The notes under the pieces are model-generated. The model did no database searches. It was given only the letters and a program-made list of their open reading frames with translations, and had not been told where the DNA came from. The position numbers and the translations under genes are program-made. 32,000 nucleotides of DNA from Opitutales bacterium (GTDB taxonomy: Bacteria > Verrucomicrobiota > Verrucomicrobiia > Opitutales > PNEW01), in assembly GCA_965219535.1 (NCBI GenBank), contig CBDCNV010000001.1, positions 450,001 through 482,000 on the forward strand, read 5' to 3'. This document shows, one piece after another, positions 4,586 through 31,950 of this stretch (its first letter is position 1; every line of letters begins with the position of its first letter).

Positions 4586-4755
4586 ATGACATAAGTGCTT
4601 ATGTGAATATGCGTAAAAGCGGTAATGCGGGAAGAGAGATCTTATTAATTTAAAATGAATACTATCGACTACCGAGGACGTAATCCGAGATCCCTCCGGC
4701 CGGCAATCGTAACAGTCGACAATTACTTGTATTATTGTAAAACTTGAGGGCATTT

Positions 4756-6102: not shown

Positions 6103-6104
6103 TA

Positions 6105-6189
6105 CAATTGCGGATTGATGGATACAAGATAAACTTTGAAATAATCGTTAGTATCAATCCGCAATCCAAGATTGGTATTTCGCAATCGA
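6105..6189. repeat. Heptamer-family inverted pair between convergent wzt and the GT2
   Basis: Perfect 12-bp inverted repeat TTGCGGATTGAT (6108-6119) / ATCAATCCGCAA (6153-6164). The right side continues as five in-phase units, CAATCCG CAATCCA AGATTGG TATTTCG CAATCGA (6155-6189), ending 1 nt before the GT2 stop codon. Confidence 0.8.
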
Positions 6190-6190
6190 G

Positions 6191-8316: not shown

Positions 8317-8351
8317 CAATCGTCAATCAGCCATCGCAAATTGACAATCGA
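8317..8351. repeat. Heptamer array, 5 units, directly downstream of the wzm stop
   Basis: CAATCGT CAATCAG CCATCGC AAATTGA CAATCGA in perfect 7-nt phase. The wzm stop codon is at 8359-8361. Confidence 0.8.
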
Positions 8352-9319: not shown

Positions 9320-9804
9320 TTATTCATCATGCCAGTGAAATATATTCATTTCTCCTTTATATTGCCAATCATTGAAGTTATTTACTAATCCATGACGCAT
9401 TGGATTATTCTGCACATACTCCCACTTTTCTGAATAGCTCTCAGCACTCCGGAGTTGTCGATCCCAATAACTTTTTTGCCATATGGGCTGTACCTCGGGC
9501 TTTGCCCACCTAAAGGAAACATAAGATTTCCAATATTGGATCCATTGCGTCAGAGGTTCCACCATAACCGTTGAAGGAGCACAAAATAAGTGAATATGAT
9601 CTGGTAAAATTACAAAATTACCTACTTTCCAGGATTAGGCTGCATCCCAAACTTGTTGAATTAGGAAAAATGTTTCGTTGTTGGCATATATGTTTTTTTA
9701 CCTTTCGAGCAAACAGTAACAAATACAATATTGGAACGATTAGGAATTTCTAAAACTGGTAGATGAGCAGGATATTTACGTTTTGGGAATTCCTGATAAT
9801 CCAT
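9320..9804 (-). pseudogene. Decayed REP-associated tyrosine transposase (RAYT) / IS200-like Y1 HUH transposase
   Basis: My minus-strand translation gives MDYQEFPKRKYPAHLPVLEIPNRSNIVFVTVCSKGKK, then a frame change, then ANNETFFLIQQVWDAA*SWKVGNFVILPDHIHLFCAP (HUH motif), continuing into the 81-aa ORF ...YWDRQLRSAESYSEKWEYVQNNPMRHGLV (Y1 region). Two lesions: a frameshift that restoring one A in the A7 run (T7 on + strand, 9693-9699) would fix, and an in-frame TAA at 9635-9637. Confidence 0.7.
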
Positions 9805-9851
9805 TAATATTAAATACGGTTATAATAGTATTTAAATTAATTCCTATGGAG

Positions 9852-9871
9852 GGCCACGCGTCGTCGTGGCC
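9852..9871. repeat. GC-rich hairpin GGCCACG-CGTCGT-CGTGGCC, 48 nt upstream of the RAYT-like pseudogene
   Basis: Perfect 7-bp stem with a 6-nt loop, read directly from the sequence. It stands out in an AT-rich spacer. Confidence 0.5.
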
Positions 9872-9947
9872 GTGAAAAATGTCGTTTATATTTTATGCTT
9901 TTGTAAGATGTTGTCCTTCAGTCGGGATTCTAAAGTGGCATTCTTTT

Positions 9948-9968
9948 CAATCGACAATCGACAATTGC
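9948..9968. repeat. Heptamer array, 3 units, upstream of the RND adaptor gene
   Basis: CAATCGA CAATCGA CAATTGC, 52 nt before ATG 10020. Confidence 0.75.
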
Positions 9969-11117: not shown

Positions 11118-11130
11118 TAAAATAATTTGC

Positions 11131-11195
11131 GATTGTCGAAATGCGATTGTCAATTGATAGGATACAGGATGCACGATGCAGGATTCATGATCCAT
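11131..11195. repeat. Two blocks with 7-nt periodicity in the adaptor-pump spacer
   Basis: Block 1: GATTGTC GAAATGC GATTGTC (11131-11151). Block 2, after a 9-nt phase break: GATACAG GATGCAC GATGCAG GATTCAT GATCCAT (11161-11195). Confidence 0.7.
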
Positions 11196-14520: not shown

Positions 14521-14548
14521 TCGATTGCCGATTCAATCGATATTTTTG
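14521..14548 (+). terminator. Minimal heptamer hairpin plus T-run between convergent RND pump and TPR genes
   Basis: TCGATTG (14521-14527) / CAATCGA (14534-14540) form a 7-bp perfect stem with loop CCGATT, followed by TATTTTTG. It starts 2 nt after the pump stop and overlaps the TPR gene stop codon at 14533-14535. Confidence 0.55.
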
Positions 14549-16035
14549 AATTTCAGGCTGTCGATAATCTCTTCCATCCAGGATGCTGATTCTTTAAATT
14601 TATCAATTCCTTCATCCGGGTAAAAATTAAAGACCACCCAAATCATCTGGTTGCCAAGATATATCATATATTTTCTCACTGAGTACTGACCTTTTTTATC
14701 TTTTCCCGATGACTGTTTAAAATAATCTACGTATCCGGCTGGGTATTTATAGTCTTTTAAGAAATTCTTATGAATGGAAAACGTTCCCGAGGGGGTACCG
14801 GTAAATTTCGGATTCTCGAAAAGCATTTTAAATCTTTCATGGGTGACAGCTTTCTTATCACGATCCTGACCTGGGGGTACCATTATCGCGATACTGTCGC
14901 AGTAAGTAGAAGGATACTCCCAGAATACCTGTAAAGTATTTGCTCTTGTCGATTCTTTAGCTACCCATCCATTCGGGTAGTCGAGGGTAAAATTCAATTC
15001 ACCTGCTTTCTTATGTCCCTGACTATTAAAGGTATTAAAACCGGGTTCATGAGTAAAAAAATCAAGCGTCGATTGTGCTTTTTTCTTAAACATCCTTATC
15101 TCATTTGTCATCACTTTTAAATCCCCCGATTCTGTCAATTCAAGAAGGACTTCCAGTTCTCTTTTCGCTTCGTGATATTTTTTCTGCAAGGTCAACGCCT
15201 GGCCAAGATGCATCTGAATACGAATGGTCGCGTCGATTACCGCGTTTTTATCTATTATATTGTTAAGTTCATTTATGTTGGGTAGGGCGGCTCTGGCTTC
15301 ATTCAATATCTCTATTGCTTCCGATAATTTACCAACCCTCACATAGGCATCTCCCATGCGTGCCAATATTGGCGGATTGCCCGAAGTTTGATTAATATAT
15401 CTCTCATAGTATTTAATCGCCTCCTCAAAATTCCCTGAATTAAAATGCAGATCTGCCACATTTCCGATCGCAGTAAGATTTTCCGGGTTTCCAGCGATGG
15501 CTTTTTCGTAATAATAAAGTGCATTATCGATGTACTTTTTAGTTAGTTGTTCATTCAGGTTTCCCTGCTCCGATAGATTTTTATAACACCAGGCGAGACC
15601 TGAATAGAGTTCTGGCGCTGTATTTCCAAGACGTTCACTTTCACCATAGGCATTGAGCGTTTCAATCGTTCGGCCCGGTATCCTGGCTAACGCGTTCCCC
15701 TTCATTAGAAAGGCAAATGCGAAACTCGGATTGAGTTTGATGATTTCATCAAATTGTTCTATCGCTTTCTCGTATTGGTAGATTCCCATATAGATGTCTC
15801 CTAATAATCCCCGCAACCGCATTATTTCTACCTCTACTTCAGGTGTTGCACTGGAGGATGACCGAACGGCAATTTCATGTTCCAGGAGCCCCACTGCCTC
15901 ATTGTGCTGGCCGTTCATCATCAGTTGTTGTGATCCCTGGATTATCCCATCAATCGTTGTGCCGTTAGCACCTGAAAGATTTAATGCTGAGATTAATAAA
16001 ATGATGGCTATGCTTCCACTGAGTATATTTTTCAT
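14533..16035 (-). CDS. Secreted TPR-repeat protein with an uncharacterised C-terminal domain
   Basis: 500 aa. N-terminal signal peptide (MKNILSGSIAIILLISALNLSGA). Multiple TPR-like units in residues about 40-330 (YEKAIEQFDEIIKLNP, EEAIKYYERYI, AIEILNEA). The last 170 aa or so have no motif I recognise. Confidence 0.7.
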   Translation of the reverse strand: MKNILSGSIAIILLISALNLSGANGTTIDGIIQGSQQLMMNGQHNEAVGLLEHEIAVRSSSSATPEVEVEIMRLRGLLGDIYMGIYQYEKAIEQFDEIIKLNPSFAFAFLMKGNALARIPGRTIETLNAYGESERLGNTAPELYSGLAWCYKNLSEQGNLNEQLTKKYIDNALYYYEKAIAGNPENLTAIGNVADLHFNSGNFEEAIKYYERYINQTSGNPPILARMGDAYVRVGKLSEAIEILNEARAALPNINELNNIIDKNAVIDATIRIQMHLGQALTLQKKYHEAKRELEVLLELTESGDLKVMTNEIRMFKKKAQSTLDFFTHEPGFNTFNSQGHKKAGELNFTLDYPNGWVAKESTRANTLQVFWEYPSTYCDSIAIMVPPGQDRDKKAVTHERFKMLFENPKFTGTPSGTFSIHKNFLKDYKYPAGYVDYFKQSSGKDKKGQYSVRKYMIYLGNQMIWVVFNFYPDEGIDKFKESASWMEEIIDSLKFKNID

Positions 16036-16090
16036 GATGATTTCTGCTTCTATGAAAATTTCGGTTTGAATGAAGGATATTCCAACATTG

Positions 16091-17626
16091 TCAAAGGTGT
16101 TTTTCCACCGTTTGGGTTAACGAACTGAATTCATCTTTTAATGCGGGGTACAAGCTGCGATAGTGCGGATAAAAATCATCGTATACTTTTTTATCAGGTC
16201 CGGGTTGAGATTCGCCTGTTATCTTTATTGTCTTTTCGCAGGCGTCTTCCACCGAGTTATAAACTCCGGTCCCTACTCCCGCCAACAATGCTGCCCCATA
16301 GGCTGCCCCTTCCGTAGCGTTGACCGTGACGATCTGTGAATCAAAATTATCCGCCAGGAGCTGCAGCCAAAATTTACTTTTGGCTCCACCGCCAGCGGCG
16401 CGTACCTGACTCGGTTTTATCCCTAAATTACGCATGAGTTCAAATCCGTCCCGGAGACCATAAGTAACCCCCTCGAGCACCGCACGGGTCATATGGGCTT
16501 TACTGTGACGGAGCGTGAGACCGACGAAAGCACCTTTGGCATCCGGGTCTGGATAAGGTGTGCGTTCACCAGTAAGATAAGGTAAAAAGAGAAGCCCCTC
16601 TGATCCTGCTGCGACTTCCGAAGCTCTTTCCGTAAGCATGTCATAGGCGTCAACTCCGGTTTCCTCTTCAAGTGTCTTCTCTTCACTTCCCAATGTATTG
16701 CGAAACCATTGAAAACTTCCTGCTGCTGATAGCATCACACCCATGAGGTGCCACTTACCGGGTACTGCGTGGCAAAATGCATGCAATCGACCTTCGGGCT
16801 CGACCAAATATTTGTCCGAATGGGCAAAGATGACTCCCGAGGTCCCAAGCGTAGCTGAGACAACCCCATCCTTTACGATACCGCAGCCGATTGCTCCAGC
16901 TGCCTGATCACCGCCGCCGGCAATTATCGGCGTGCCCTCCAACAAACCGGTTATCTTTGCGGCTTCTGTATTTATTCGGCTCGAAGCAACGGGAGATTCC
17001 GTAACTTCAGGCAGCCAGTCCCGAGAAATTTCACAGCCGGACAACATCTCATCCGACCACTGACGCTTGGATACATCGAGGAGCGACATTCCGGATGCAT
17101 CGGAGACATCGGTATAGAACTCCCCTGAGAGCAGGTAGCGAATATAATCCTTAGGTAACAGAACCTTGGCGACCTCAGCATAGACTTCAGGCTCGTTTTC
17201 TCTCACCCATAATATTTTTGGCGCGGTGAAACCCGCAAGGACAGGATTTCCTGTGAGCTCGAGCACTTTGGCCGCTCCTATTCTTTTCGTAATTGAATCA
17301 CACTGTGACGCCGATCGCTGATCATTCCACATGATGCAAGGGCGAAGTACCTTTCCACGCTTATCGAGAAGCACCAAGCCGTGCATTTGACCAGTAAGAC
17401 CAAGACCGGCGATATCAGCTGAATGAATATTCTGTTCCTCTAATAGATGTTTAATCGCCTGAATCGTGGCCTGCCACCAATCATCAGGTTCAGATTCCGC
17501 CCATAATGGCTTAGGAGTAGAAAAATCGTACTCCGGTGCTACTTTGCTTTTTACTTCACCCGATTCATTAATAAGCACCGCTTTGGCACTCGATGTGCCG
17601 ATATCAATCCCGATTAAATAAGGCAT
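16091..17626 (-). CDS. xylB: Xylulokinase (FGGY family)
   Basis: 511 aa. IGIDIGTSSAKAVL, GLTGQMHGLVLLD, LRPCIMWNDQR, FTAPKILWVRENEPEVY, LLPKDYIRYLLSGEF, LPYLTGERTP and GGGAKS align by eye with E. coli XylB along the full length. Confidence 0.9.
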   Translation of the reverse strand: MPYLIGIDIGTSSAKAVLINESGEVKSKVAPEYDFSTPKPLWAESEPDDWWQATIQAIKHLLEEQNIHSADIAGLGLTGQMHGLVLLDKRGKVLRPCIMWNDQRSASQCDSITKRIGAAKVLELTGNPVLAGFTAPKILWVRENEPEVYAEVAKVLLPKDYIRYLLSGEFYTDVSDASGMSLLDVSKRQWSDEMLSGCEISRDWLPEVTESPVASSRINTEAAKITGLLEGTPIIAGGGDQAAGAIGCGIVKDGVVSATLGTSGVIFAHSDKYLVEPEGRLHAFCHAVPGKWHLMGVMLSAAGSFQWFRNTLGSEEKTLEEETGVDAYDMLTERASEVAAGSEGLLFLPYLTGERTPYPDPDAKGAFVGLTLRHSKAHMTRAVLEGVTYGLRDGFELMRNLGIKPSQVRAAGGGAKSKFWLQLLADNFDSQIVTVNATEGAAYGAALLAGVGTGVYNSVEDACEKTIKITGESQPGPDKKVYDDFYPHYRSLYPALKDEFSSLTQTVEKHL

Positions 17627-17632
17627 AGGTAT

Positions 17633-17688
17633 GATTGTCGATTTTCGATCGCCGATTGTCGATTGTCGATTGTTGAATTAGGATTCGC
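17633..17688. repeat. Heptamer array, 8 units, abutting the xylB start codon
   Basis: GATTGTC GATTTTC GATCGCC GATTGTC GATTGTC GATTGTT GAATTAG GATTCGC in perfect phase. The xylB ATG (minus strand) ends at 17626, 6 nt away. Confidence 0.85.
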
Positions 17689-17800
17689 TGCTTGTCGGCT
17701 GTAGTCCCACTACCTCAGGTAATATAGCACGTGATGACGCGCATCCCTCATTTAGAAATAACAGTATTCATAATATCATTCGACTACCGAGAGGAAAGTT

Positions 17801-17835
17801 CGACATTCGTCATTCGGCAATCGGAAATCGGAAAT
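17801..17835. repeat. Heptamer array, 5 units, inverted partner of 17633-17688, overlapping the GT1 3' end
   Basis: CGACATT CGTCATT CGGCAAT CGGAAAT CGGAAAT. The reverse complement of 17809-17829 matches 17640-17660 at 17 of 21 positions. The array encodes the GT1 tail ...NFRFPIAE and its stop codon. Confidence 0.8.
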
Positions 17836-19093
17836 TGTCACGGCCTTTATAGTTATTCACAAAATCTTCTAAAAGTTTTACGGCTTCTTTTCCTGCATCT
17901 TCCCTGGCGAGTTCGCGTGCGAAATATTCGGCGTTTTGACGAAGCTTTTGATCGTTTTCAACCCTAAGGACGTACTCAGTCAGCAATTCCGGCCATTGTC
18001 TTTTACTTATCTTAAGTCCAACCTCCATGCGACTGGTCTCTTTAGCCCATAAAAATTGATCGGCTATATGGGGGATGATAATACCCGGTTTTCCAGAATG
18101 CCAAACTGAAGCCGTTGTTCCAGCACCACCATGGTGAATTACCACCGAGGCATGGCGAAAAAGCTGATCATGAGATACATGGTCAATGCATTTGATATTA
18201 GGCAGATCCTCTTCAGGAGATAGTTTTGCCCAACCGCGTTGAATGATAATTTTTTTATTTTTCGGCCAGCGACTGAGAAATCGATGCATCTTCTTTTCTC
18301 GATCATCGAAAGTGACACTGCCAAATGTAATTACGGGCACTTCATTGCCCGCGCAGAAATCCTGGAGCTCCTTTTCTAATTGTGGATCTTGAGCGGACTG
18401 CCAACGGAGATGGCCGATGAATTGATATCGCGGATTGATCCGGGCATTCGTGGGAAGTAGATTTTTACTTACTGCTACAAGCGCGAGATCAGCCGGAGCG
18501 AATATAAACTGTTTGATGGAGGGTGTTTTACCCTCCTTGATACGCGTGGCCAGAATTTTATTTAACGTTCTGCTAATCAGCGCGTTTGATACTTTCCATA
18601 AGGTGGTATTCCAAAATTGCTGCAGCTTTTTTGGAAAAATTATGAGAGAAGGAATATCATGAGGTGGATAGTCAGGTGAAGGTACGATCAAATGACTAAA
18701 ACAGACAACGGAAAAAGGGACATTGTATCGATCAGCTGTCACTTTAAAATGGGGGAAAAGATAGGAACAGACAAAGAGGTCTGCATCCTTCAAAGCGATT
18801 TTCAGACGTTCTAAAGTTTCATCGAGAAATGGCATTCCGCTGCGATAAATGATTTCCAATTGTTTTAACGGATGCCGCGTGCGAACCAGCTTCAGCATGC
18901 ACGAGGCGAAAATTTCCTGATCCCAATCCGGAGGTATGTATATGTATTCCAACTCGGCGCGCTCTATCTCACCCTGAAAAAGTGGAGCGGCAGCTAAGCG
19001 AACGGTATGTCCAGCTTCGCTCAGCGCTCTACCCAAAGCGATTACCGGATAGATATCACCTGTCGATCCTGCGGAGTTTAGTAAAACGCGCAC
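17810..19093 (-). CDS. GT1-family UDP-glycosyltransferase (MGT / sterol-glucosyltransferase-like)
   Basis: 427 aa. N-terminal GSTGDIYPVIALGRAL and C-terminal VIHHGGAGTTASVWHSGKPGIIIPHIADQFLWA (UDP-sugar binding signature). The last ~8 codons and the stop lie inside a heptamer array. Confidence 0.75.
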   Translation of the reverse strand: MRVLLNSAGSTGDIYPVIALGRALSEAGHTVRLAAAPLFQGEIERAELEYIYIPPDWDQEIFASCMLKLVRTRHPLKQLEIIYRSGMPFLDETLERLKIALKDADLFVCSYLFPHFKVTADRYNVPFSVVCFSHLIVPSPDYPPHDIPSLIIFPKKLQQFWNTTLWKVSNALISRTLNKILATRIKEGKTPSIKQFIFAPADLALVAVSKNLLPTNARINPRYQFIGHLRWQSAQDPQLEKELQDFCAGNEVPVITFGSVTFDDREKKMHRFLSRWPKNKKIIIQRGWAKLSPEEDLPNIKCIDHVSHDQLFRHASVVIHHGGAGTTASVWHSGKPGIIIPHIADQFLWAKETSRMEVGLKISKRQWPELLTEYVLRVENDQKLRQNAEYFARELAREDAGKEAVKLLEDFVNNYKGRDNFRFPIAE

Positions 19094-22884: not shown

Positions 22885-22893
22885 ATAATTTTC

Positions 22894-22921
22894 GAATTCC
22901 GATTTTCGATTGACGATTGAC
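22894..22921. repeat. Heptamer array, 4 units, directly downstream of the dnaE stop
   Basis: GAATTCC GATTTTC GATTGAC GATTGAC, preceded by a degenerate GATAATTTTC that overlaps the TAG stop at 22882-22884. Confidence 0.8.
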
Positions 22922-23103
22922 CCTAACGGTATCATGAGGGTGTAGCGACATCTTCCTTTCCAGAGGGTAGTATATTTCTGAGATCACTGAAGATAATCCG
23001 TGGATTGAGATAAAATTATCCTTGATATCGGCTACCTCTACTGAACCTGTAAGGCAACACCCTGCAACGCGTGGCCCGCCAACATGTATATTGCATTCTT
23101 TAT

Positions 23104-23152
23104 CAATCGACAATCGGCAATCGAAAATCAGCAATCCGACATCGACAATTGT
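23104..23152. repeat. Heptamer array, 7 units, inverted partner of 22894-22921, abutting the nitroreductase stop
   Basis: CAATCGA CAATCGG CAATCGA AAATCAG CAATCCG ACATCGA CAATTGT, ending 1 nt before the stop at 23154-23156. The reverse complement of 23109-23129 matches 22901-22921 at 19 of 21 positions. Confidence 0.85.
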
Positions 23153-23972: not shown

Positions 23973-23990
23973 ATAATAAGGTGAACGGAC

Positions 23991-24004
23991 GATTGACGAT
24001 TAAA
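23991..24004. repeat. Short heptamer array (2 units) upstream of the nitroreductase start
   Basis: GATTGAC GATTAAA, preceded by a degenerate GAACGGAC. Confidence 0.55.
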
Positions 24005-24052
24005 CTACAGAGTTGTCCAACCTGTGTCTTGCCCAGTATGTGGCTATCTTAA

Positions 24053-24087
24053 CATTCGACAATCGAAAATCTGCAATCGTCATTTGA
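24053..24087. repeat. Heptamer array, 5 units, downstream of the rnhC stop
   Basis: CATTCGA CAATCGA AAATCTG CAATCGT CATTTGA, ending 4 nt before the rnhC stop at 24092-24094. Inverted relative to 23991-24004. Confidence 0.8.
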
Positions 24088-24091
24088 TTGG

Positions 24092-25060: not shown

Positions 25061-25130
25061 TGATTATCTTTTAACCCCAAAATATTATTACAATCAATCT
25101 CCAACTTTCATTAATATACCTAAACAAGAC

Positions 25131-26183
25131 GTGAAGTTCAGGCTGGAAAAAGATATAACACTATTTCAGAAAAAGCTGCAACACTGGTATGCTAAACACC
25201 AGCGTGACTTGCCCTGGCGCCGTAACCCAACGCTCTATAAAACCGTGGTTTCAGAGTTTATGTTACAGCAGACACAGGTGGACACGGTTCTCCCTTACTT
25301 TCATCGGTGGATTTCAAATTTCCCTGATTTTGATTCAATTGCACGTGCAAATGAAGAGGTCGTAGTAAAAAACTGGGAAGGTTTGGGGTATTATTCACGC
25401 GCGCGAAATCTTCACCGTGTAGCCCGTATATTAACAAGTAATGAAAAGATTCCTTCTCGCGCAAAGGAGTGGGAGCAATATCCTGGTATCGGACCGTATA
25501 CTGCAGCGGCCATTTCAAGCATAAGTTTTCACTACCCAGCGGCAGTACTTGATGGGAATGTCATTCGTATACTGACACGTCTCACAGCGGACGCCACGCT
25601 GTTCAATGACAACAATTCTGCCATTCGAAAACTTACGCCCTTGGCAAATAAACTTCTCGACGTAATAAATCCGGGGACACACAACCAGGCAATGATGGAG
25701 TTAGGTGCGACGGTATGTATGCGTTCGAAACCACGTTGCTCAGTATGTCCCGTTCACTCTTTTTGCTCTGCAGGTAAACGTGGAGATAGGGATCAATTCC
25801 CTCGTTTTAAGGCTAAACCGCCACAGCGCCTGAAAATTAATCGTGTATGGATACAGAGGAATGGCGCTCTTCTCTTGCACAAAGCGTCCTCTAAAGCGAA
25901 ACGTCTAGCTGATTTCTATGAGCTACCTTCAGCAGAAGGATTTGTGAAAACCCTTACGCGGAAAGACCGGTTGGTGATAAAAAAGCGCGGCATTAGTAAT
26001 CAGTATATCGAGGAGAGGATTTATCGGGTAAAATCGAACGCTAAAATTACACAACTTGTTAGATCGTCTCCTGATCTTCACTGGATACCGGCATTCAAAA
26101 TGAATGCGATTATCCTTTCAGGTCCCCACCGCCGTTGGATCAACCAATTGATTGCGGATTTCGGATGTCGGATTGCGGATTGA
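25131..26183 (+). CDS. mutY: A/G-specific adenine DNA glycosylase
   Basis: LPWRRNPTLYKTVVSEFMLQQTQV, GLGYYSRARNLH, DGNVIRILTRL, the 4Fe-4S loop C-x6-C-x2-C-x5-C (CMRSKPRCSVCPVHSFC) and a C-terminal NUDIX-like domain. GTG 25131 avoids the overlap with rnhC. The last ~11 codons and the stop lie inside a heptamer array. Confidence 0.85.
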   Translation: MKFRLEKDITLFQKKLQHWYAKHQRDLPWRRNPTLYKTVVSEFMLQQTQVDTVLPYFHRWISNFPDFDSIARANEEVVVKNWEGLGYYSRARNLHRVARILTSNEKIPSRAKEWEQYPGIGPYTAAAISSISFHYPAAVLDGNVIRILTRLTADATLFNDNNSAIRKLTPLANKLLDVINPGTHNQAMMELGATVCMRSKPRCSVCPVHSFCSAGKRGDRDQFPRFKAKPPQRLKINRVWIQRNGALLLHKASSKAKRLADFYELPSAEGFVKTLTRKDRLVIKKRGISNQYIEERIYRVKSNAKITQLVRSSPDLHWIPAFKMNAIILSGPHRRWINQLIADFGCRIAD

Positions 26184-26184
26184 A
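26150..26184. repeat. Heptamer array, 5 units, covering the mutY 3' end and stop
   Basis: GATTGCG GATTTCG GATGTCG GATTGCG GATTGAA, preceded by CAATTG (26145-26150). The mutY TGA at 26181-26183 lies inside the last unit. Confidence 0.85.
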
Positions 26185-26335
26185 AAGAATGCTAAAGGTG
26201 GAACGCGCTGTCCCTAGCGCGTTGGTATTAAACTAGAATATATTATAGCGTGCTGGGGAACCAGCCGTTGCGAAGGCTATAGCGGTCAGACAGCCCGGCT
26301 CCACCAAGTGTAATGAGATTAGGGGTATTCTAAAT

Positions 26336-26370
26336 CAATCTGCAATCCGAGATCCGCAATCCGCAATTGA
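26336..26370. repeat. Heptamer array, 5 units, inverted partner of 26150-26184, downstream of rpsU
   Basis: CAATCTG CAATCCG AGATCCG CAATCCG CAATTGA. The reverse complement of 26335-26363 matches 26155-26183 at 26 of 29 positions. Confidence 0.85.
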
Positions 26371-26384
26371 ACGAATCGATTCAT

Positions 26385-26585
26385 TCAACTATTTTCATGG
26401 CGAAGCCTGAGCATATTCGTAAATGCCGCCACTTTTTTCTTCCGCCTTCTAATCTCTGATGGTTTTTCAAAATAGCGTTTAGAACGGACATCGCGAATCA
26501 CACCTTCGCGGTCGAGCTTTTTTTTAAGCCGACGGAGCGCGCGTTCCATGGGTTCACCCCTTCGTATTCTAACTTCTACTGGCAT
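26385..26585 (-). CDS. rpsU: 30S ribosomal protein S21
   Basis: MPVEVRIRRGEPMERALRRLKKKLDREGVIRDVRSKRYFEKPSEIRRRKKK is a canonical S21. ATG 26585 gives the usual length of about 66 aa. Confidence 0.9.
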   Translation of the reverse strand: MPVEVRIRRGEPMERALRRLKKKLDREGVIRDVRSKRYFEKPSEIRRRKKKVAAFTNMLRLRHENS

Positions 26586-26656
26586 ATCGCTATATGTGAA
26601 AAGATTGAAATCTGCAATTTTAGACAAAAGGGTCAATCCTTTTTTGAATGTGACAT

Positions 26657-26688
26657 GGGTAATAGGGTAAAAGGGGTAAAGTAATAGG
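26657..26688. repeat. 8-bp direct repeats (GGGTAAnA-like) in the rpsU / nucleotidyltransferase divergent spacer
   Basis: GGGTAATA GGGTAAAA GGGGTAAA GTAATAGG, read directly from the sequence. Confidence 0.5.
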
Positions 26689-26771
26689 AATAAACAAAAA
26701 ATTAAGTAAATTGAGCTATTTATAGCATAATCTCTTTTATTCTAGCCAGCCATACTATAGAACATAACAAA

Positions 26772-27677
26772 ATGAAACCGACATTGCTTATTCTCGCAGC
26801 GGGTGCCGGCAGCCGTTTCGGAGGCTTAAAGCAAATGGAATCTTTCGGCCCTAATAATGAAACGATTCTTGAGTACTCAATCTACGATGCCATTCGTGCA
26901 GGATTTGGAAAGATCACTTTTGTCATTCGCAGCGATTTTGAGGAGGCGTTCAAGCAACGCATCGGAGCGAAAGTCGCAGAGCGCATAGCAGTAGATTATG
27001 TTTATCAGGATTTAAATCAACTGCCAGCTGGGTATTTCCTGCCCTCGAAAAGGACAAAACCCTGGGGTACGGGTCATGCGATATGGGTTGCCAAAGACGC
27101 TATCGCGGAGCCGTTTGGGGTAATCAATGCAGACGATTTTTACGGTCGCAGCGCTTTCGAGGCTTTATTTAAATTTCTCTCTCAAGCGAACGAGAATGGT
27201 GATGGCAACTTATGTCTCATCGGCTACCGCCTCGCGAATACGCTCTCCGATTTTGGATCGGTTACACGTGGCATTTGCAAAGTAGATGATAATGACTACC
27301 TCGTAAACCTGGAGGAGCATTTTAAAATAGAGAATACCGCCTCCGGTCCCCGTTCATGTGATGCAAAAGGTAATATCAATACCTTGAGTGCGGACGCGGT
27401 CACTTCAATGAATCTATTTGGTTTTACACCCTCGGTGTTTGTAAACCTGGAATCGCTATGGATTGAATTTCTGGAAAAGCATGGTGGAGATTTAAAAGAG
27501 GAATTTTTAATCCCCACTGCCGTCGGCAAGATGATCAGTCTCGGTCACGCGAAACTTAAAGTCCTGATGACGGACGAAAAGTGGTTCGGGCTGACATATC
27601 CTGAAGATGTCAAGGTAGTCAGAACTCAAATTGAGGATCATGTGAGCAGAGGAACCTATCCCGCAGTGCTGGTGTAG
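26772..27677 (+). CDS. Sugar-phosphate nucleotidyltransferase (NTP_transferase family)
   Basis: 301 aa. N-terminal LILAAGAGSRFGGLKQ (GxGxR signature), KPWGTGHA, NADDFYG. Sugar specificity cannot be told from the sequence alone. Confidence 0.7.
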   Translation: MKPTLLILAAGAGSRFGGLKQMESFGPNNETILEYSIYDAIRAGFGKITFVIRSDFEEAFKQRIGAKVAERIAVDYVYQDLNQLPAGYFLPSKRTKPWGTGHAIWVAKDAIAEPFGVINADDFYGRSAFEALFKFLSQANENGDGNLCLIGYRLANTLSDFGSVTRGICKVDDNDYLVNLEEHFKIENTASGPRSCDAKGNINTLSADAVTSMNLFGFTPSVFVNLESLWIEFLEKHGGDLKEEFLIPTAVGKMISLGHAKLKVLMTDEKWFGLTYPEDVKVVRTQIEDHVSRGTYPAVLV

Positions 27678-31545: not shown

Positions 31546-31950
31546 TCGGTTTTCGGGGAGAATGCATTCGCTCTGATTCTTGCAATTGGAGAGGAAAGTC
31601 CGGACATCAAAGGGCAGGATTCCTCGCGAAAGCGAGGGCGTTTTCGGTTCAAACTGAGAATGACGGATAGTGTCACAGAAAATAAACCGCCCTGTAGGGT
31701 AAAAGCTGCAGGGTAAGGGTGAAAAGGTGGGGTAAGAGCTCACCGCCCTGAGGGCAACCAAGGGGGCATGATAAACCCAATCCGGTGCAAGACCAAATAG
31801 GGGACCGGGTGGCCCGCCCATCGGTCCCGGGTGAGTCGCACTCCTTTTACGAGGAGATCGGGTCGCGATTTCGCGGTCTGATAGATAGATGAATGCACTC
31901 GTCCTTTTAGGACGGGACAGAATCCGGCTTAATCTCCCCTGAAAACCGAC
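31546..31950 (+). ncRNA. rnpB: RNase P RNA, bacterial type A
   Basis: Universal conserved regions are present: GAGGAAAGTCCGGAC (CR-I), GTGTCACAGAAAATAAACCGCC, GGTAAGGGTGAAAAGGTGGGGTAAGAGCTCACC, and ACAGAATCCGGCTTA (CR-V). P1 pairing between 31546-31560 (TCGGTTTTCGGGGAG) and 31934-31949 (CTCCCCTGAAAACCGA). Confidence 0.92.

Follow-up and report, generated by a model that had tools for sequence, protein, structure and literature searches.

A probable REPIN in the loop of a heptad-repeat hairpin between mutY and rpsU of an Opitutales bacterium

We analyzed a 32-kb stretch of DNA from an Opitutales bacterium (contig CBDCNV010000001.1, positions 450,001 to 482,000), which we call the window, and focused on a strongly folding intergenic element between the convergent genes mutY and rpsU. 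The element has two arms made of tandem 7-nt units (heptads), and these enclose a core that resembles a pair of inverted repetitive extragenic palindromic (REP) units, known as a REP doublet forming a hairpin (REPIN). The flanking genes and the parts of the element are listed here by window position (TRF, Tandem Repeats Finder; MFE, minimum free energy).

25083-26183, + strand: mutY, A/G-specific adenine glycosylase (NCBIfam TIGR01084, E=8e-81)
26145-26183, no strand: left heptad arm, a CAATTG cap and then ATTGCGG ATTTCGG ATGTCGG ATTGCGG ATTGA (inverted repeat and TRF)
26184-26196, no strand: left linker AAAGAATGCTAAA; the junction motif GATTGA-AAAGAATGC goes with the arm layer
26197-26223, + strand: REP unit 'a' GGTGGAACGCGCTGTCCCTAGCGCGTT, which has its own 8-bp palindrome AACGCGCT/AGCGCGTT and matches the 22-nt signature described below
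26224-26246, no strand: REPIN spacer, AT-rich, with variable columns between the conserved units in alignments A2 and A3
26247-26305, - strand: REP unit 'b', inverted (AGCGTGCTGGGGA...CAGCCCGGCTCCACC), split by a 31-nt module; aligns with the long copies
26260-26290, inside REP unit 'b': 31-nt module ACCAGCCGTTGCGAAGGCTATAGCGGTCAGA, missing from short-form copies
26306-26334, no strand: right linker AAGTGTAATGAGATTAGGGGTATTCTAAA (sequence and MFE structure)
26335-26369, no strand: right heptad arm TCAATCT GCAATCC GAGATCC GCAATCC GCAATTG, CAATTG cap included
26385-26636, - strand: rpsU, ribosomal protein S21 (NCBIfam TIGR00030, 63.6 bits vs. a cutoff of 28.95)

The location between convergent mutY and rpsU, already given in a first-pass annotation of this DNA, was confirmed by NCBIfam. 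Nonetheless, the left heptad arm contains the stop codon of mutY (26181-26183), and the last 12 mutY codons run into the arm together with it. The rpsU stop codon (26385-26387) is found 15 nt past the right CAATTG cap.

The repeat finder delimited two arms of 33 nt (26151-26183 and 26335-26367) that are 91% complementary and enclose 151 nt. Both are tandem arrays of period 7 with CGGATTG-like units, 4.7 copies on the left and 4.6 on the right (TRF; 26150-26182 and 26336-26367), and they mirror each other unit by unit, including the odd third unit (ATGTCGG vs. ATCTCGG). The earlier claims that 26155-26183 and the reverse complement of 26335-26363 agree at 26 of 29 positions, and that CAATTG caps both arms (26145-26150 and 26364-26369), held up. 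When up to two mismatches were allowed, CGGATTGCGGATT matched the window nine times against 1.3 expected, and none of 100 shuffles reached nine.

At the structural level, the 229-nt stretch folded to -107.8 kcal/mol on the + strand (shuffles -62.8 ± 4.5, z = -10.1) and to -86.1 kcal/mol on the - strand (z = -6.9). In the MFE structure, GGTATTCT of the right linker pairs with AGAATGC of the left linker and lengthens the outer stem. The smaller pairings previously proposed within the core exist, with corrected positions: GGTGGA lies at 26197-26202 instead of 26201-26206 (its partner TCCACC, 26300-26305, was placed right), the 8-bp hairpin AACGCGCT-GTCCCT-AGCGCGTT at 26202-26223 instead of 26206-26227, and the GNRA-type hairpin GCTGG-GGAA-CCAGC at 26252-26265 instead of 26253-26266. 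As a structural element the last one did not stand: it is the junction between the right unit and the 31-nt module, and it is unpaired in most other long copies.

To retrieve other copies of the core, we searched a species-representative genome collection with its 22-nt left-end sequence. This signature, GGTGGAACGNGCTGTCCCTAGC, was found at 44 sites in 41 loci of Verrucomicrobiota genomes: 31 sites in OY829953.1, a 4.49-Mb Opitutales chromosome from a metagenome-assembled genome (MAG), 10 in the Opitutales MAG CBDANS01, and one each in Opitutales, Verrucomicrobiae, and Chthoniobacterales MAGs. A further core copy is present in a relative of the window (L005), where it lies not at the mutY-rpsU site but in the dapA-xseA interval. 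None of the matches in the collection came from the genome of the window itself.

The copies yield a consensus of ~75 nt, GGTGGAACGCGCTGTCCCTAGCGCGTT followed by ~20 variable AT-rich nt and AAGAAGCGTGCTAGGGACAGCCCGCTCCACC, that is, two inverted units of ~27 nt, each with a small palindrome (CGCGCT GTCCCT AGCGCG). The doublet unit of the core family is GGTGGAACGCGCTGTCCCTAGCGCG. Doublets account for 28 of the 46 copies; single units and decayed doublets make up the remainder. Across the aligned copies, the units show little or no variation, and the spacer is variable. Nine copies, that of the window included, are long forms with a module of ~31 nt (ACCAGCCGTCGCCAAGGCTATGGCGGTCAGG-like) or longer in the loop of the right unit; the window copy aligns with the long forms of L017, L027, L032, L042, and L043. 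For 19 short doublets, either one 27-bp hairpin (92.4% of the cells paired) or two local hairpins (93%) can be drawn.

Most copies (42 of 46) are extragenic, being outside open reading frames (ORFs) of at least 90 aa; the intergenic region is convergent for 13 copies, tandem for 22, and divergent for only 3. The 27-nt unit with its 8-bp stem corresponds to the short imperfect palindromic unit (20-40 nt) of REP systems, and the inverted doublet with a less conserved spacer and a long hairpin corresponds to the published description of REPINs (PMC3116915). The family is multi-copy and mainly extragenic in both OY829953.1 and CBDANS01.

The family is also adjacent to a putative transposase gene of the expected type. 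In OY829953.1 (locus L046, 2822-3292), a 156-aa ORF matches NCBIfam NF047646, 'REP-associated tyrosine transposase' (RAYT), with 80.4 bits vs. a cutoff of 80, and Pfam Y1_Tnp with 24.3 bits vs. a cutoff of 23. It carries an HLH (HUH-type) motif and a YIxxNP tyrosine, and its sole relative in PDB is E. coli TnpA-REP (4ER8). Family units and doublets lie on both sides of this RAYT, directly upstream and ~50 nt downstream, the nearest ones being inverted. A second, truncated RAYT (L029) has a family unit 16 nt downstream. The arrangement of a RAYT flanked by units was found in the related genome only.

Judging by its sequence, the core (26197-26305) is a REPIN of a RAYT-associated REP family, in a long variant with the 31-nt module, since conserved inverted ends, a variable spacer, doublets together with singlets, extragenic multi-copy distribution, and RAYT adjacency are what the published definition describes (PMC3116915; PMC3733652).

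Two loci of the signature search differ in context. At L026 (7818-7844) and L045 (1508-1534), in Verrucomicrobiae and Chthoniobacterales MAGs, a single identical 27-nt unit is flanked by an apparently duplicated gene 5' end, with the start-codon region on both sides.

The window has a RAYT of its own that is frameshifted (9320-9967, - strand). A C-terminal piece of 81 aa matches NF047646 with 53.5 bits, and another frame holds the HUH motif 'PDHIHLL'. Upstream of this remnant there is a unit of a second REP family, GGAGGGCCACGCGTCGTCGTGGCC (9848-9871), and past that unit a solo heptad arm (9938-9967) with the shared GATTGAAAAGAATGC junction. The metagenome contig L055, which ends near the RAYT, has the ortholog of this junction region (92-95% nucleotide identity).

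Regarding the arms, heptads are not restricted to this element. In 481 kb of these genomes, period 7 leads the tandem repeats (105 of 300 TRF arrays; another 32 have period 14), the units fall into many families, and 100 of 115 heptad arrays are intergenic. Among the arrays with an inverted partner, 7 are in convergent, 10 in tandem, and 1 in divergent intergenic regions, and 2 were classed as genic. The window itself contains other examples.

6103-6190: heptad hairpin with a 25-nt loop only
8317-8351 and 11128-11195: degenerate heptad arrays
17633-17838 and 22888-23150: heptad hairpins with unrelated fillings of ~110-180 nt
23990-24091: heptad hairpin with a ~50-nt filling

These additional hairpins and arrays sit just downstream of genes. 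Within the filling at 22888-23150, the second REP family is represented by a degenerate unit (GGCGGGCCACGCGTTGCAGGG, - strand).

The motif that joins the left arm to its linker, GATTGA-AAAGAATGC, occurs three times in the window (26178-26192 on the + strand, 9938-9952 and 23092-23108 on the - strand), and its relaxed form GATTG-N(1,2)-AAAGAATGC had no match among 48 loci examined. A metagenome scan for GATTGNNGATTGAAAAGAATGC gave 13 matches, of which only those in L055, L061, and L063 were relevant. The other 10 were rejected as coding sequence unrelated to heptad arrays, 8 of them in one conserved ...WGLEIEKNAI... gene. The L055 match is the ortholog of the 9.9-kb site of the window, and in L061 and L063, from a GC-richer organism, a perfect (CGGATTG)n hairpin that has no REPIN shares the CAATTG cap and the AAAAGAATGC loop start. 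Because the same junction is found in REPIN-free hairpins, the linker belongs to the hairpin, and the REPIN lies in its loop. By comparison of these sequences, the arms belong to a class of intergenic heptad hairpins that is found throughout the lineage and is separate from the REPIN.

In L061 (745-860) and L063 (1060-1175), the hairpin is in frame in the variable linker of an SBBP-repeat protein gene, and homologs of this protein have a variable linker of a length similar to that of L063 with its hairpin. The CAATTG cap is present at the left end only; the right arm ends in CAATCG. Both contigs share the left flank and the hairpin and diverge right after it, by rearrangement or assembly chimera.

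Heptad arrays of different units also appear in a recurrent order, GATTG-type, ACGATGC-type, and ACAGTGA-type, and can nest as two-unit hairpins. We observed such ordered arrays at L001 11160-11219, L050 560-735 (- strand), L005 11040-11120 and 18700-18790, L008 3671-3904, and window 11128-11195; the L001 contig ends inside a heptad array just after mutY. Further intergenic modules include a long hairpin, GTCATTGCGAGGAGC...GCAATGAC, and a CTACCGAG-N(10-12)-GACATC module. Small repeat modules of this sort are found at L005 11150-11260 and 7790-7900, L013 2780-2900, L002 8805-8825, and window 17780-17805 and 4668-4690.

Comparison of the same site among relatives separated the two layers. MutY homologs put the window in Verrucomicrobiota, among Opitutales-like organisms, and the gene order dnaE, nitroreductase, rnhC, mutY, rpsU is kept in L001-L007 (MutY identity of 97%, 85%, 75%, and 63%) and in L049 and L050, both with identical S21. 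Nucleotide alignments of the window with its relatives break exactly at the edges of three heptad-armed blocks (17665-17828, 22886-23126, and 26144-26374). The orthologous intergenic sites always bear GATTG-type arms, with differing arm lengths and fillings. The core family was not found at the mutY-rpsU site in L002/L003/L004, L005, L049, or L050, or in the 49 nt of it reached by the L001 contig. It is present at this site in L006/L007 (63% MutY identity), in inverted orientation (nhmmer best '-' 41.1 bits, vs. '+' 40.5 bits in the window).

The most informative relative is L050, with identical S21 and a MutY that ends in ...IAD*. The right arm of L050 (TCAATCCGCAATCCGAGATCCGCAA..., shorter) is that of the window, odd GAGATCC unit included; on the left there are only 1.5 heptads, the REPIN is lacking, and ~130 nt of other repeats lie in between. 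The window MutY ends in ...RRWINQLIADFGCRIAD, compared to ...RRWINEIIAD in near-identical strains: three additional in-frame heptads make it 7 residues longer (IADFGCRIAD* vs. IAD* in 97%-identical strains).

The mutY stop is within a heptad array (GAT TGA, ...D*) in five of the seven genomes compared (window, L001, L002, L005, L006, L049, and L050), and four of these five proteins end in ...IxD*. The exceptions are L002 (...SPQ*) and L049 (...CRA*). Elsewhere in the window, positions 14667-16095 (with a 500-aa ORF of a tetratricopeptide-repeat protein, 14533-16035) have no counterpart in the otherwise collinear L055, and ~400 nt (18629-19034) are likewise absent from it.

At other loci, the core family has quite different flanks. 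About one third of the REPIN copies in other genomes lie between inverted short-repeat arms of other units (GACGAAG etc.) with semi-conserved linkers. A test for inverted repeats in the flanks of REPIN copies did not discriminate them from mismatched-flank controls, and the same arm types recur between loci. Short tandem arrays are commoner in REP-bearing (26 of 39) than in REP-free (50 of 172) intergenic segments (Fisher p = 3e-5), a comparison confounded by segment length. REPINs nested within tandem-repeat hairpins are thus a recurring pattern. Hairpin loops may be preferred REPIN targets, which is plausible for a transposase acting on single-stranded DNA, or arms, linkers, and REPIN may sometimes spread jointly, for example by gene conversion between similar arrays.

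Taken together, the element is probably a composite of two nested repeat layers, a REPIN in the loop of a heptad hairpin, and not one designed structure. For the inner layer, REPIN doublets would be non-autonomous elements that fold as hairpins in single-stranded DNA; by analogy with the E. coli and Pseudomonas systems, a single-copy RAYT of the HUH/Y1 type would cut and rejoin them in trans. The outer layer (26145-26196 plus 26306-26369) is a hairpin with a GATTG-type heptad stem and a loop that opens with AAAGAATGC. Across the lineage, heptad hairpins are placed just downstream of genes and vary in length by whole units. Since lengths differ unit-wise between strains, we infer that the arms change by slippage, and the mirrored unit variants ATGTCGG and ATCTCGG indicate that both arms are maintained as matching halves of a palindrome.

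Any cellular effect would be a by-product. As one candidate, the two convergent transcripts would each end in a very stable 3' stem, beginning at the stop codon in the case of mutY and ~15 nt past it in the case of rpsU. Stems of this type can influence mRNA decay, termination, and translation termination in E. coli. A function beyond selfish spread, either as a 3'-end hairpin or as a REPIN landing pad, is something that we only infer.

Several observations weigh against the composite of REPIN and heptad hairpin. There is no cognate RAYT in the 32-kb window, and its RAYT remnant (9320-9804) adjoins the other REP family. The window contains only one core copy. The invariance of the left unit is partly imposed, because 22 of its 27 nt are the search pattern, although the right unit is conserved outside that pattern. 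Described REPs typically carry a GTAG or CGTC tag, and RAYT flanks of the terminal inverted repeat (TIR) type have also been described (PMC3733652); the terminal tag is not present here, where the units open with GGTGGA and close with TCCACC. Among the close strains there is no clean empty site, as the whole filling, linkers included, is replaced and not simply inserted. Many of the OY829953 and CBDANS copies are part of a larger recurring setup of inverted GACGAAG-type arms, semi-conserved linkers, and REPIN, and thus the three might sometimes move together.

The alternative that survives best is compatible with the composite of two repeat layers. The element could be kept as a bidirectional transcript-end structure for mutY and rpsU (terminator, insulator, or 3' stabilizer), as with the REP hairpins and bacterial interspersed mosaic elements (BIMEs) of E. 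coli, although we regard it as unlikely. Its position between convergent genes, with a stem that opens at the mutY stop and lies ~15 nt past the rpsU stop, the stability of the folds on both strands, and the persistence of heptad arms at orthologous 3' ends across relatives are consistent with such a role. However, a scan of 25900-26800 detected no canonical intrinsic terminator (GC stem and T-run) in or beside the element, and the filling is not conserved even among close strains. Divergent intergenic regions rarely hold heptad hairpins (1 of 20) or REP copies (3 of 46), but purifying selection against insertions would deplete promoter regions of them just as well.

A broader and still more tentative proposal is that the inverted heptad arrays form a lineage-wide Opitutales system. 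They would be modular 3'-end hairpins evolving unit by unit (in GATTG-, ACGATGC-, ACAGTGA-type order), acting as transcript-end structures of a non-canonical type and also, in single-stranded form, as landing pads that take up RAYT-driven REPINs in their loops, with the arms and AAAAGAATGC recognized by a putative dedicated protein.

It is doubtful that the whole unit of ~225 nt is one element of the kind of miniature inverted-repeat transposable elements (MITEs), with the heptad arms as TIRs, moving as a unit. The first-pass annotation had listed a MITE-like insertion among three options, and it was the nearest of them in that the DNA is repetitive and of a mobile type; the unit with conserved TIRs is, however, the inner 109 nt (26197-26305), not the 225 nt. 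The mirrored arms, odd third unit included, and the CAATTG cap at both ends would fit a MITE, as would the segment that differs from L050, which spans the extra left-arm heptads, both linkers, and the REPIN. Inverted short-repeat arms with semi-conserved linkers and a REPIN recur at many loci in other Opitutales genomes. In addition, a metagenomic organism that is unrelated and GC-richer has a (CGGATTG)n hairpin with this cap and loop start, which suggests spreading of the hairpin itself. Against this, no second composite copy was found; the junction motif was in none of the 48 loci, and in the metagenome scan it came only with other fillings. The flanks of core copies at other loci are unrelated. 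Arms occur at orthologous and neighbouring sites in all relatives down to 63-75% MutY identity, with any filling. The arms have a different length and different units at every site, also from strain to strain, so that there is no fixed TIR, and no target-site duplication could be demonstrated, save a possible 3-nt AAC flanking both caps.

An independent structured small RNA (sRNA) or cis-regulatory RNA, with the arms as its processing stem, is very improbable, despite a strong predicted structure, a core family sequence conserved across genomes, and a homologous core at the same intergenic site in the relative of 63% MutY identity. At gathering thresholds, Rfam 15 had a sole match in the whole window, a full-length bacterial RNase P RNA of class A (31552-31946, + strand; 225.8 bits, E = 2.5e-72). 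At E<=10, the best match in 26050-26450 had 17.4 bits vs. a gathering score of 90, which is noise. The family is multi-copy, quasi-palindromic, and present in both orientations, and the core is missing from the same site in closer relatives. The promoter scan detected no sigma-70-like promoter in the element.

We also looked for compensatory substitutions among the copies, a check that the first-pass annotation had suggested, and the result too went against an sRNA. In the 27-pair hairpin of the 19 short doublets, 19 of the 27 pairs never vary and one pair has changes on both sides; the model of twin hairpins has no both-side changes. For the long hairpin, 19 of 500 shuffles reached the observed percentage paired, both-side-change cells, further pair types, and covariation score, and 450 of 500 reached the fifth measure, pairs with a both-side change. 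Invariant stems without covariation point to a recently amplified DNA repeat and not to a selected RNA fold. A 15-codon ORF from 26189 seemed conserved in two relatives and was rejected, since the sequence 5' of GGTGG is different in each of the 46 copies.

Finally, the least probable reading, an invertible DNA switch in which recombination at the arms flips the core, was rejected as unsupported: the core of L006/L007 is inverted relative to mutY compared to the window, but there is no recombinase gene nearby, the core has no promoter-like site and is nearly symmetric, so inversion would change little, and independent insertion is simpler given the intermediate relatives without a core.

Overall, the first-pass observation of an elaborate folded block was confirmed and its interpretation partly supported; its boundaries were misdrawn, and no special RNA is involved.

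The REPIN/RAYT kind is already known, and the core is a further member in Opitutales, not a new kind of system. In P. fluorescens SBW25, REPINs of groups GI-GIII were described, GI having 71 bp between 16-mers (Bertels & Rainey 2011, PMC3116915). As in the SBW25 REPINs and the E. coli REP-TnpA-REP system (4ER8), the ends are conserved and inverted, the spacer is less conserved, and a hairpin of ~75 nt is predicted. Other shared traits are the short imperfect palindrome in each end, the RAYT gene flanked by the same units, and tens of copies per genome, mostly extragenic, as doublets and singlets. Unlike in those systems, the core-family units start with GGTGG and not with GTAG/CGTC, they are systematically non-identical (a and b types, with two fixed mismatches in the long hairpin), and many copies have a module of 31 nt or longer in the loop of one unit. 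Besides, the host belongs to Opitutales (Verrucomicrobiota), and the cognate RAYT is in a related genome, not in that of the window.

The BIMEs of E. coli are mosaics of inverted REPs and other short motifs. The blocks described here are likewise intergenic mosaics of several short repeat modules in a recurring order after genes, but their additional modules are tandem heptad arrays forming long stems. MITEs such as the Correia elements of Neisseria are short non-coding insertions bounded by inverted repeats, which form a long hairpin in transcripts. The present element is similar as short non-coding DNA between genes, bounded by inverted repeats and with a long predicted hairpin, and it differs in lacking a demonstrable target-site duplication and in having tandem-repeat arms of variable length instead of a fixed TIR. 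We know of no related DDE transposase or parent insertion sequence for it.

Heptad repeats have been reported in other phyla. The TAACTGA heptamers of Beggiatoaceae, Cyanobacteria, and Bacteroidetes are direct repeats just upstream of start codons (PMC4679880), and Nostoc has the heptanucleotide repeats csR1 and csR4 (PMC2408588). The arms share with TAACTGA repeats and cyanobacterial short tandemly repeated repetitive (STRR) sequences the intergenic tandem 7-nt units, the many unit families per genome, and the variable copy number, and csR4 ATTGCGAATTGCGAATTG resembles their ATTGCGG unit; the likeness to STRRs is one of array features. Unlike STRRs and TAACTGA repeats, the Opitutales arrays are commonly inverted pairs, form long hairpins that enclose other repeats, and lie mostly downstream of genes. 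In the searchable literature we found no description of inverted heptad arrays for Verrucomicrobia and nothing relevant on the exact unit and heptad sequences.

In practice, 'highly structured' intergenic blocks of this kind in Opitutales should be masked as repeats (REPIN and heptad arrays) and not annotated as sRNA genes. Such repeats explain short-read assembly breaks in these bacteria, as in L001, which ends in heptad arrays, and in L055, which ends near the RAYT locus. The core adds a REPIN/RAYT system of Verrucomicrobiota in which the unit has an atypical GGTGG tag and, optionally, an inserted module. Moreover, the arms point to an undescribed abundance of inverted heptad arrays that alter gene 3' ends, as in the MutY of the window with its 7 extra residues.

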